In this document: piece after piece, positions 30,803 through 47,352 of the stretch | How positions within the stretch are numbered: the stretch's first letter is position 1 | Layout: every line of letters starts with the position of its first letter | IMG/VR virus record: IMGVR_UViG_3300008261_004773 | Coordinates: 1-64,000 of that record | Length of the DNA stretch: 64,000 nt | Reading direction: 5' to 3' (one strand) | DNA from: a virus | The notes under the pieces: model-generated | The model's database searches: none | What the model saw: the letters and a program-made list of their open reading frames with translations, nothing else | Told to the model about the DNA's origin: nothing | Position numbers and translations under genes: made by a program

Positions 30803-31498
30803 ATGAAGATTATTTTAACACCTGAAGATAAAAAGTATTTGAGATTCTACGGTAAATACATCCAATCTTATGGGGAAAAAGAAACCACATTTAGAATCGA
30901 TGATTGGAACCCTGACTACACAGATATACATGATGGAAGATTACACGCCGATGAGAATTATTACTTGGACATTCCCGAGAGAATAACACCAATCATCAGA
31001 AAAATCTCTGAGTCTTTGTCCGATTATGAACCTAATTATGAGAGTGATGATGTAGGATCAACTTGGGCGGATTTCAAAATTGATAGCCAAGACAATAGTG
31101 TTCACGTTGAATTTTGCTACAGTTATTTCACAAGGGATGAACAGGGTATGAGTTGGGATGAGGTGGAGATTTCGGCAGACGACACCCTTTCAAAAATTAT
31201 GGATGAATTGAGGGAGTCTAACGTACCATATATGTCAGTAAAATTTGATGGTAATGGTGATAGTGGATCTATCGAAGGTGCAGAGGATGAAGATGGTGCA
31301 ATTATTGATTTACCTGCAGACATTGAAGATTGGTGTTATAATCAATTGGAGAGTAATTACGGTGGATGGGAGATCAATGAAGGATCCAACGGATCTTTTA
31401 TCTTCAATACCGAAAAAAATGAAGTAATTCTTGATTTTGCGTGGAATAACGAAAATACAGAATGTGATACAATTTACGAAGAAAAGTTTGATATCTAA
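30803..31498 (+). CDS. DUF6878-like acidic protein
   Basis: FDG.GDSG ... GWEINEG. Confidence 0.6.
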   Translation: MKIILTPEDKKYLRFYGKYIQSYGEKETTFRIDDWNPDYTDIHDGRLHADENYYLDIPERITPIIRKISESLSDYEPNYESDDVGSTWADFKIDSQDNSVHVEFCYSYFTRDEQGMSWDEVEISADDTLSKIMDELRESNVPYMSVKFDGNGDSGSIEGAEDEDGAIIDLPADIEDWCYNQLESNYGGWEINEGSNGSFIFNTEKNEVILDFAWNNENTECDTIYEEKFDI

Positions 31499-33655: not shown

Positions 33656-33705
33656 CATTTGACAATTAAAATCTATTTTACTATTATTTCATACAAACTT
33701 TTTTT

Positions 33706-34146
33706 ATGACTATCAAACAAGCTTTAAAGTACAAAAACAAACTTGCTAAGAAAATTTCTGAAGAGATGATCAAAATCTCGCATTATAACTCAATAGAAGT
33801 AGGATCTGTTCGTCCTTACGATGTTAATGAGTCTTACCAAAAATATTACACCATGGTAAATGAATTGGTGGATTTAAAAAACAAAATACATCTTGCAAAC
33901 GCACCTGTTTATTACCAAATTTTCCGTTTATCTGAATTAAAAGGAATGGTGAGTAACCTAAAACAATTGGATTGTTCTGAAGGTAAAGTTGCATCAAGAT
34001 ATGGTAGAAGTATGGGTGAAGAACCTACAATTAAGACCGCTGTAATTACAGTCAAAATGAGAGATGAGGCGGTGGAAACTTTGGAAACTGAGATTGAAAA
34101 AATTCAAGAAGAATTGGATCATCACAACGCAATTACAACAATTTAA
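33706..34146 (+). CDS. DIP1984/DUF6847-like coiled-coil protein
   Basis: M.IKQAL...LK.KI..AN ... IQEELD.HN..T pattern. Confidence 0.6.
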   Translation: MTIKQALKYKNKLAKKISEEMIKISHYNSIEVGSVRPYDVNESYQKYYTMVNELVDLKNKIHLANAPVYYQIFRLSELKGMVSNLKQLDCSEGKVASRYGRSMGEEPTIKTAVITVKMRDEAVETLETEIEKIQEELDHHNAITTI

Positions 34147-34153
34147 AAATATT

Positions 34154-34330
34154 GGGTCAAGTGAAGAGGAGAGATAATTAAAAGTTAAGCTAGCAATGGC
34201 TCTACAATCAAATATTTCTGATGCAGGAACTCGAATTGTGTATTCAAAAATTAAAATTCATCAGTTCAAAAATTAAACGTCAGATGTCAACATTCTTTCA
34301 ATTTTAATTTTCAAACCTTTTCCTTGATCC
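34154..34330 (+). ncRNA. Stem-closed RNA with heptad UCA/UUA repeats downstream of the DIP1984-like gene
   Basis: 15-bp closing helix; about 7-nt periodicity inside. Confidence 0.6.
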
Positions 34331-34348
34331 TCCTTAAAACAATTTATT

Positions 34349-34591
34349 ATGGAACTTTTTTGGACTTATTATGTTATCTGTGTGATTTATTGTCACATTC
34401 AACTCTACAAAAGATATCGTAGAGACATGACGCCTGGAGCGTTGAATATAACACCGGCTCTAGATTCAATCATGGTTATTATTCTCGGTTGGGCTTTGGC
34501 TCCTGTGGACTTTTTCCTAACTTGGATCAGGCTTTACAAAGAAGCTGAGGAAGCACGTAGAAGAAATTCAGACGATAAGAAAGTATTCTAA
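34349..34591 (+). CDS. Small membrane protein
   Basis: Two hydrophobic segments. Confidence 0.55.
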   Translation: MELFWTYYVICVIYCHIQLYKRYRRDMTPGALNITPALDSIMVIILGWALAPVDFFLTWIRLYKEAEEARRRNSDDKKVF

Positions 34592-46957: not shown

Positions 46958-47352
46958 TGGTGGAGATGACGGGAGTCGAACCCGTGTCTTGTTCACGAAC
47001 ACTATAAATGACTACACGTTTAGTACAACGTTGTTTCTCAACGTTACGAAATATTAGGTTAGATATATGTGGGAAACCAACCTACAAACAACCTGGTCTC
47101 AGAATTATTTTAAACGAGCTCTGACCTGTCACCCGTATATTGGACTTCTGTTCCTAGGTTAACGTCCTAATCGACCCGATATGTTGTTCTCTACGATTAC
47201 GCAGCAACAACGCTTTCTTCACGGATAAGACCGATAGCAGAAAGTTTTGCGAAAGTTTCGCCGTTTGTGTTTCAAATCAGTTTTTAAGGAGTTAATTCAG
47301 CTCCTACGTGCCATCTATAATATCACATGCCAATCAATGCCGTGACATCCCC
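46958..47352 (-). ncRNA. ssrA: tmRNA; tag GETFAKLSAIGLIREESVVAA (47197..47262)
   Basis: GGGGATG 5' end; GGGTTCGACTCCCGTCATCTCCACCA 3' end; tag ends AA-stop. Confidence 0.93.

Follow-up and report, generated by a model that had tools for sequence, protein, structure and literature searches.

A DIP1984-fold protein gene and an adjoining stem-closed RNA with 7-nt repeats: probably an undescribed protein-RNA pair of jumbo T4-like phages

The locus and its source phage

The DNA considered here, further called the window, is the first 64 kb (64,000 nucleotides) of a 96.8-kb virus record of IMG/VR (IMGVR_UViG_3300008261_004773), the completeness of which is estimated at 31%. It contains 23 tRNA genes and a tmRNA, and codes for a T4-type portal protein and terminase, a ClpB-like ATPase and a TonB-receptor-like outer-membrane protein. 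The source is a jumbo (large) T4-like phage from lake water, as identified by the T4-type portal and terminase, and the same phage has been seen again in freshwater metagenomes from about 15 studies.

On the plus strand of the window, positions 33706–34146 are occupied by a gene for a helical protein of 146 amino acids, the stop codon of which (TAA) lies at 34144–34146. It is followed by an RNA element of about 180 nt, which is matched by two covariance models at 34150–34333 on the same strand (R1, 119.7 bits, E 1.7e-19; R2, 106.3 bits) and is present as a single copy in the 96.8-kb record. Gene and RNA together form a compact pair of about 630 nt. Between a tRNA-Ser gene, ending at 33656, and the start of the protein gene there is a sigma-70-type promoter-like site (33659–33687, plus strand; TTGACA, 17 nt, TATTAT), which agrees with the consensus at 11 of 12 positions. 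Of 60 distinct related loci, 39 have a comparable promoter with at least 10 of the 12 positions, its end lying some 20 nt ahead of the ATG, and a few loci carry promoters of the Bacteroidota type (TTTG/TAnnTTTG) instead. In relatives, the RNA starts 1–10 nt past the stop codon of the gene, and a canonical intrinsic terminator is found within about 15 nt of its end in 35 of 65 loci; no canonical terminator is present right after the RNA in the window.

The region is covered by contigs from RNA libraries of four metatranscriptome studies, one contig spanning 33711–34858. Contigs of this kind, which may contain DNA, report on presence and on the continuity of gene and RNA and are silent on transcript ends and levels, and the gaps in their coverage that occur in some runs carry no meaning. 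In two studies contigs end at 34213/34214, in one case with an adapter tail, an observation that is too weak to propose a processing site.

The original prediction held that no open reading frame explains the segment downstream of the gene, and this is upheld by the comparison with relatives. The window does contain a frame of 28 codons that starts from the GAUG at 34220–34223 (ATG at 34221), and frames of 20–35 codons exist in several relatives. However, an AUG at the conserved GAU column is found in 21 of 54 relatives, where it opens frames of 2–28 codons, so that there is no conserved reading frame in the element. The 28-codon frame is interrupted by frameshifts in the close relatives L048 and L050, according to a reading of the printed sequences, and the similarity that remains between the peptides is what repeated UCAAAA yields in any frame.

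A phage-borne relative of the DIP1984 family

The protein had initially been assigned to the DIP1984 family by eye, which proved correct for fold and superfamily but not for membership by the curated cut-offs. The AlphaFold2 model (pLDDT 94.6) consists of a helical hairpin followed by a helix, a beta-hairpin and another helix. Its sole convincing structural relative is 3KDQ, an uncharacterised protein of Corynebacterium diphtheriae, which superimposes with Z 13.1 and an rmsd of 3.1 on 140 of the 146 residues, whereas the next chains reach Z values of at most 8.9; Foldseek gives a probability of 1.00 and a TM score of 0.63 for the same structure. With 3KDQ matched over the full length, the window protein has the same fold as the DIP1984/DUF6847 family, which covers nearly the whole of the chain. 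In profile searches, the NCBIfam model DIP1984_fam (NF038048) matched residues 5–85 alone with 26.6 bits (E 5.6e-06; 23.7 bits in the genome-wide search) and did not reach its cut-off of 70, and Pfam DUF6847 (PF20935) gave 13.5 bits, which is below the gathering threshold of 27. Given the 26.6 bits against a cut-off of 70, the window protein is, by its profile scores, a distant relative of the DIP1984 family and no curated member. Its own relatives are matched more often, with 123 of 140 representatives recognised by DIP1984_fam at E ≤ 0.001 and 10 of 19 close relatives by DUF6847 at E ≤ 0.01.

The 140 close homologues have lengths of 142–163 amino acids, and a profile search yielded 1856 representative clusters (50% identity clusters) at E ≤ 0.001. 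The clade to which the window protein belongs was found in phage contigs only. For the close family there was no homologue in the cellular genomes searched with the A1 patterns, nor was one found in plasmids (tblastn); among deposited phage records the only matches are two uncultured huge phages, and no cultured phage. A ToxN-like or defence-family match is absent in Pfam, PADLOC and PHROG, the PADLOC results being restricted to weak matches of a coiled-coil type (LmuB) for a distant relative. In some sources the DIP1984 family is labelled 'septicolysin'. Since no function has been assigned to the family, its name explains nothing about the role of the protein.

The 146-aa protein is predicted to self-associate. 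When four copies were folded together, one copy against the others scored 0.68, as compared to 0.00 for the best of 3 controls. The runs agree in at least 86% of the contacts, with a partner pLDDT of at least 88, and the predicted self-interface is symmetric and formed by residues 21–32, 40–92 and 108–114. The mark for self-association is reached by 20 of 30 proteins that were solved as pairs and by 1 of 23 that were solved as single chains, counts that are only rough for the present case, and the pass of the window protein may reflect its likeness to the solved relative 3KDQ.

Structure and repeats of the RNA element

The RNA element is closed by a helix, P1, that appears both in the minimum free energy (MFE) fold and in the covariation of the family. 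Its purine-rich 5' arm (34154–34169, plus strand) is formed by GGGUCAAG (34154–34161) and GAAGAGG (34163–34169), with U34162 bulged, and pairs with a pyrimidine-rich 3' arm (34316–34330, plus strand) to give 15 bp, two of which are G-U. P1 is the outer helix of the MFE fold of 34147–34345, which has a free energy of -42.3 kcal/mol (z = -3.8), and 0 of 200 shuffled sequences were as stable. The 15-bp stem that had been noticed on inspection of the letters is therefore present and far beyond what chance would produce, and it begins 7 nt past the stop codon rather than the 8 nt then given. When RNAalifold was applied to the model-fitted alignment, only the outer 8 bp of P1 were recovered, and the inner extension of the helix (34173–34185 with 34302–34312) should consequently be taken as a prediction from a single sequence.

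Directly inside P1, the MFE fold contains a small hairpin, P2 (AGCUA-GCAA-UGGCU; 34188–34201, plus strand). The same position holds a hairpin in relatives, with stems that differ, and its 3-bp core shows 86.8% pairing, two of the three pairs having changed on both sides. On the 3' side of P2 the alignments show a conserved motif, CUACAA (34202–34207, plus strand).

The remaining part of the element is an A-rich tract of about 95 nt (34220–34315, plus strand), which has no conserved pairing in the alignment and is distinguished by its periodicity. It is composed of about 12 units of 7 nt, of which the first three are of a GAU type (34220–34243) and the others of a UCAAAAN/UUAAAAN type, so that UCAA or UUAA recurs about every 7 nt between 34244 and 34313; in the consensus of the family the tract terminates in UUAAAACUC. 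The T[CT]A trinucleotide is found at 34244, 251, 258, 266, 273, 280, 287, 304 and 311. These nine positions are as originally listed, and a further one at 34294 has to be removed because the sequence there is TCT. Counting pairs of T[CT]A at periodic distances (7, 14, 15, 21 and 22) gives 17, against 2.8 +/- 2.0 in shuffled sequences, and 0 of 5000 shuffles reach this number. The exact duplication noticed within the tract was also found, the 13-nt sequence TTCAAAAATTAAA being present at 34243 and 34265. Unpaired probability peaks at the UCAA units. In the core it amounts to only 0.4–0.7 in thermodynamic folding, and the description of the tract as single-stranded thus rests on the absence of conserved pairs.

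Conservation of the RNA and its linkage to the gene

The 3' flanks of homologous genes bear directly on the expectation that both the stem and the heptads recur. Among 86 viral loci that were found with the protein, nearly all have a helix that joins the first 1–10 nt past the stop codon to a segment 165–210 nt downstream, and the sequences of the P1 arms vary widely among clades. The interior has the same order throughout the family: a small hairpin and CUACAA, then UGAU, AU and GAU motifs some 7–8 nt apart, and in the 3' part UCAAAan, UcAAnau, UCAAana, UCAAaAn, a spacer, UcAAAnn and UUAAAACUC, after which the 3' arm follows. The covariance model R1, built from 13 sequences, places the element right after the gene and always on the plus strand in 59 of 66 loci. 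The broader model R2 was applied to 91 distinct phage loci, of which 75 have the RNA directly downstream of the gene, again on the plus strand, at E ≤ 1; at E < 0.01 the number is 66. The 16 loci that are missed by R2 include cases with about 50% G+C and with about 30% protein identity, and by eye these loci show diverged versions, with the closing stem, a purine-rich 5' arm, the hairpin, and A-rich heptads (GUAAAAC, NUAAAAN). The expectation was thus borne out.

Pairing in P1 is well preserved in the family, with 90.8% of the cells paired, versus no more than 51% after sliding the partner by 1–3 columns. Compensatory changes are found in 17 of 19 P1 pairs, and on each of the five measures that were used all 500 shuffles fall short; the covariation alignment was fitted to the model, and it is the slide control that is decisive. 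The frequent occurrence of G-U pairs makes the fold specific to the plus strand, and together with the compensatory changes it indicates that selection acts at the RNA level on the plus-strand fold.

The period of the repeats is conserved as well. In 61 aligned elements, the distances between T[CT]AA motifs peak at 7 (117 observed, 6 expected), and again at 14–15, 22–24 and 29–31. The 7-nt period is kept and the sequence of the unit drifts by clade, from UCAAAA to UUAAAAG and GUAAAAC. Two periodicity scores, one based on motif chains and one on generic lag-7 identity, did not separate the elements from background.

The RNA is also present in the huge uncultured phages LR756500 (462 kb) and LR756511 (595 kb), the proteins of which are 36% and 30% identical to that of the window, respectively. 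LR756511 has units of the type UUAAAAG and a Lys-rich open reading frame of 28 codons between gene and RNA, and in a second set of 73 loci that was seeded from its clade, an R1 match lies downstream in 24 of 43. Intervening frames were found elsewhere too, namely a zinc-ribbon frame of 62 amino acids in one clade and a C1 peptidase at one locus, and strict adjacency of stop codon and stem is therefore not essential.

The linkage was also examined in the reverse direction. A pattern describing the RNA core occurs at 75 places in IMG/VR, 44 of which have the full gene upstream, either directly or with the zinc-ribbon frame in between. The other 31 consist of one model-positive place that is cut at the locus start and 30 model-negative chance matches; the RNA without the gene was not found among the 75 places. 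When the pattern was run on genome contigs, none of the at least 124 matches listed had the gene upstream, and many of them were cyanobacterial heptamer repeats. Judged by these sequence comparisons, the RNA is real, conserved and obligately linked to the gene.

No catalogued RNA family covers the element. The segment 34147–34345 has no match in Rfam 15 at the gathering score, and what is found at E ≤ 10 is at chance level, such as CRISPR-DR47 with 19.6 bits versus 39 and on the opposite strand. In the literature searched there was no mention of 'DIP1984' or 'DUF6847' and no report of such an RNA, which agrees with the initial statement that no RNA partner has been described for this family.

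Bacterial DIP1984 genes

For comparison with bacteria, three bona fide DIP1984/DUF6847 genes are available, two from Bacteroidota and one from a cyanobacterium. Rfam gave no match at the three loci, and R2 none at the two loci from Bacteroidota. Downstream of the gene, a GC-rich Bacteroidota locus and the cyanobacterial locus have conserved blocks in common, which include a GGUUCGAAUCC-type hairpin and, following it, CACAAC, a motif that is related to the phage CUACAA and lies after the equivalent hairpin. At the GC-rich Bacteroidota locus, five heptads of a CAC type can be seen in register, as judged by eye and with no valid statistic. Because of the common downstream blocks at the Bacteroidota and cyanobacterial loci, it is likely that a diverged version of the RNA exists in bacteria. 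A separate category of bacterial DUF6847 genes without the RNA was dropped, since it had been defined by the phage motif only and the loci L359 and L371 have the common downstream blocks.

A proposed cognate protein-RNA module

Since gene and RNA travel together and the RNA belongs to no catalogued family, the two are probably an undescribed protein-RNA pair. The gene (33706–34146) and the RNA (34150–34333) would constitute one transcription unit and one functional module. As the sequence supports, a strong host-type promoter and a short leader precede the protein gene and the RNA forms the 3' part. The ends of this RNA pair to form P1, with P2 and CUACAA coming next, and P1 encloses the heptad tract of about 95 nt. 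Several copies of the DIP1984-fold protein may then bind along the lattice, with one protomer or dimer per unit or per pair of units, and P1/P2 could serve as anchor or nucleation site, comparable to the folded element on which T4 gp32 nucleates before its cooperative spreading along UUAAA repeats. What results would be a ribonucleoprotein that is made early in infection. As to its task, the context gives a weak hint of RNA-centred conflict or of RNA quality control, with tRNA arrays, a Thg1-like gene and SAK-type RNA-repair HAD domains near the module in some relatives.

The two-way linkage, which is kept across deep divergence, the constant 7-nt period with drifting units, the closing helix, the early-type promoters and the predicted self-association of the protein make a cognate ribonucleoprotein the simplest account of these observations. 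That gene and RNA are a functional pair in which several protein copies directly bind the heptad lattice is in our estimate somewhat more probable than the contrary. We know of no nucleic-acid binding in the DIP1984 family, which counts against direct binding, and conserved synteny would also be expected of a 3' element that acts in cis on the mRNA and is bound by another factor.

The most serious candidate for such a factor is a single-strand binding protein (SSB) of the gp32 type. The RNA would then act in cis as part of the 3'UTR, or offer a lattice to a single-strand binder, where cooperative loading on the U(U/C)AAA heptads sets mRNA stability or buffers free SSB, and the neighbouring protein would make no contact with RNA. 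The gp32 protein is a real rival ligand because the phages are T4-like, as is evident from portal and terminase, and encode gp32. Of 14 related records, 10 have a gp32 homologue, among them every record with a completeness of 52% or more, and its place in the genome is away from the element; in the 96.8-kb fragment itself the gp32 gene was not found. The site size of gp32 is about 7 nt, and in one of the related phages (L362) the gp32 leader has a hairpin, ACAAUUUAAAACUUCAAAAACA and the AUG, in this order. In T4 itself, gp32 nucleates on a pseudoknot in the gene 32 operator and spreads cooperatively over more than 40 nt of UUAAA/UAAA repeats (PMC535899), and operator and element thus both combine a folded part with a long A/U-rich stretch of weak structure, in which short units of a U(U)AAA type recur. 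The position is different, however, as the operator belongs to the leader of gene 32 and overlaps the ribosome-binding site, whereas the element is located 3' of a DIP1984-fold gene and has no such overlap. Unlike the operator, the element has its loop closed by a helix of 15–30 bp and keeps about 12 units strictly to a period of 7 nt. The gp32 leaders are short and have 1–2 UUUAAA units only; a pair of units spaced by 7 or 8 nt was found in 3 of 10 leaders (2 independent) versus 5.8% in the background, which is a weak and small comparison. Furthermore, it is the DIP1984-fold gene and not gene 32 that accompanies the RNA, likely diverged versions of the RNA adjoin DIP1984 genes of bacteria, which would not be expected to have gp32, and the units vary by clade (CAC-type, UAC-type), which is unlike the preference of a general SSB. 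We consider an explanation by gp32 or a similar binder unlikely.

Another option is that the RNA acts in trans as a decoy or sponge, the heptads of which titrate a host RNA-binding protein (S1, Hfq, or a protein of the RRM or KH type) or provide a bait or pseudo-antitoxin for an A-rich-specific endoribonuclease (ToxN/AbiQ); the protein would be a chaperone or be unrelated to the RNA. Early, strong promoters of the host type would suit a sponge. Many repeated, accessible motifs between stable stems are typical of sponges such as CsrB/RsmZ, to which the element may be likened, and phage pseudo-ToxI RNAs exist. In CsrB/RsmZ, the GGA motifs in hairpin loops are read by CsrA, a beta-sheet dimer, and on the trp leader TRAP, a beta-sheet ring, reads about 11 (G/U)AG triplets that are 2–3 nt apart (every 5–6 nt). 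The element resembles these RNAs in that a single RNA offers numerous short single-stranded motifs, spaced evenly or closely, as would suit multivalent binding. In contrast to both, its motif is UYAAA at every 7 nt and its protein is a helical bundle, and there is no sequence or family relation. The earlier suggestion of a TRAP-like ring is not supported as an assignment to that system, as U(C/U)AA(A) units recur at intervals of 7 nt and the adjacent protein is helical.

The suggestion of a type III antitoxin-like RNA is likewise not supported as an assignment. In type III toxin-antitoxin systems (ToxIN, AbiQ), the toxin gene is preceded by a terminator and, further upstream, by RNA repeats of about 36 nt, which the toxin excises. 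A protein gene and a repetitive RNA are combined in one operon in the window, too, but the units measure 7 nt instead of about 36, the gene precedes the RNA, and the protein resembles ToxN neither by profile match nor by fold. The short units also argue against a pseudo-antitoxin, as does the lack of similarity to ToxI or any Rfam family. Against a sponge in general there is the obligate linkage to one protein family. The units also differ in sequence between clades and with G+C content but keep their period, which is easier to reconcile with a cognate partner that co-evolves than with a host target that is fixed. A sponge or decoy therefore appears less likely still.

The layout of the element recalls Ro60/Rsr with the bacterial Y RNAs (YrlA), where an adjacent noncoding RNA of 100–200 nt has a long stem formed by its ends around a functional module, and which are found in phages as well (PMC4201824). 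In a surveillance particle of this type, the protein would bind the closing stem, and the inner module would tether damaged RNAs or tRNAs or present them to nucleases or repair enzymes. The element shares with Y RNAs a closing stem of the 5' and 3' ends that surrounds an internal module, a likeness in layout only. The bacterial versions have the GGUUCGAAUCC-type hairpin, which is T-loop-like, at the position of P2, whereas the P2 loops of the phages are not T-loops. Genes for tRNAs adjoin the module in the window, at the phage loci L081, L023, L031 and L082–L085 and at the bacterial locus L359, and among 96 loci the neighbours include Thg1 once and SAK RNA-repair HAD domains three times. However, the neighbours at the 96 loci are mostly unrelated and diverse, with no dominant conserved gene among them. 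Y RNAs have an internal tRNA-like domain where the element has a heptad tract, and the element has no match to Y RNAs or tRNA in Rfam. The TROVE domain (PF05731) of Ro60 was not found in the 96.8-kb fragment nor in five related records, four of which are at least 97% complete, and RtcB was not found in the fragment nor in four complete related phages. A particle of the Ro60 type is for these reasons improbable.

It is very unlikely that there is no functional RNA at all and that the segment is a small peptide gene, a set of DNA-level repeats (iterons) or a long terminator or spacer, since the reading frames mentioned above are not conserved, compensatory changes and G-U pairs point to selection on a plus-strand RNA fold, and separate canonical terminators follow the element at the 35 loci indicated.

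Implications

This is a genuine RNA, widely conserved and absent from the catalogues. If the cognate protein-RNA pair is confirmed, a dedicated RNA partner would be the first functional handle on a family of unknown function for which a crystal structure has been available since 2009, and the clade of the window alone counts at least 1856 clusters at 50% identity. A wider proposal, which we regard as possible but doubtful, is that DIP1984-fold proteins and stem-closed 'heptad-rail' RNAs make up a widespread ribonucleoprotein of large phages, bacteria and archaea, in which dimers polymerise on the 7-nt lattice to an RNA-templated array. Phages might employ such an array early in infection, in a conflict centred on RNA, where it could for example shield, detect or sequester the ends of tRNA or mRNA, or counter RNA-targeting defence.

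The RNA itself would represent a new class, with a long helix around about a dozen units of 7 nt, and lends itself to direct biochemical and structural tests. The compact pair could also serve as a programmable scaffold of protein on RNA. Because the module lies behind strong promoters of the host type in jumbo T4-like phages, it may belong there to an early programme of host takeover or anti-defence.

Organization of the module and its RNA

The DIP1984-fold gene and the heptad-repeat RNA are not always directly adjacent. In one clade of related phage loci (L018, L122, L127 and L115), the interval between them is occupied by a 62-aa ORF (1939-2128 in L018), which carries two CxxC pairs and is zinc-ribbon-like, and the end of which coincides with the start of the RNA; in this clade, the encoded protein may be a third component of the module. 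The same interval in LR756511, an uncultured phage of 595 kb, holds a 28-codon Lys/Pro-rich ORF (MAKGKTPKKEPKK..., positions 1988-2074 of locus L090), and an additional hairpin also separates the gene from the RNA there.

Within the RNA element itself, contigs from RNA libraries of two independent studies were found to break or end at 34213/34214 (window 34204-34214), which is between the CUACAA motif and the first GAU unit. One of the contigs that stop at this position has an Illumina adapter tail. The position may represent a processing site, or it may be an assembly break only.

With respect to gp32, the T4-type single-strand binding protein considered as a rival ligand, the leader of one phage gp32 gene (L362, from the phage to which locus L082 belongs) resembles the RNA in its grammar of a hairpin, ACAA and U(U/C)AAAA units. 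In the 70 nt before the ATG, an inverted-repeat element is followed by ACAAUUUAAAACUUCAAAAACA and then by the AUG.

Candidate relatives in bacteria

Conserved non-coding blocks were also detected 3' of bona fide bacterial DIP1984 genes, the hosts being Bacteroidota and a cyanobacterium (L359, 1930-2280; L371, 1170-1500, minus strand; L360, 1150-1491, minus strand). They include a T-loop-like hairpin (GGGUUCGAUCC / GGGUUCGAAUCC), the block CACAAC, and a motif common to L371 (GUACUGAU) and L359 (GUGCUGAU); no Rfam family matched the blocks at these three loci. Two tRNA genes lie immediately upstream of the DIP1984 gene in L359.

Heptanucleotide tandem repeats are known in cyanobacteria. Many cyanobacterial contigs were among the listed genome-contig matches (L239-L358) to a pattern derived from the RNA, with as many as three matches within a single 220-nt stretch of L299 among those listed, and they were set aside as presumably such repeats, unrelated to the module.

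Genomic context

The window encodes 23 tRNAs (5931-46759) and, on the minus strand, a tmRNA with tag GETFAKLSAIGLIREESVVAA (46958-47352). A ten-tRNA array ends with Ser-GCT, and the DIP1984-fold gene starts 50 nt beyond this last tRNA.

Directly 3' of the RNA is an 80-aa hydrophobic ORF (MELFWTYYVICVIY..., 34349-34591, plus strand), of which L142 has a homologue (MFWTYYAICVIY...) at the identical position; other clades carry a different gene downstream of the RNA. The gene for a DUF6878 protein (30803-31498, plus strand) precedes the module by 2.2 kb, and DUF6878 occurs in three of the 96 ORFs that are nearest neighbours of the module in other phages. A gene for a Thg1-like tRNA-His guanylyltransferase is located 3' of the RNA in L006 (3648-4373), and at three other loci a neighbour of the module contains a 'Swiss Army Knife' RNA-repair HAD domain. 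Together, the latter two types of neighbour hint weakly at an RNA-repair context.
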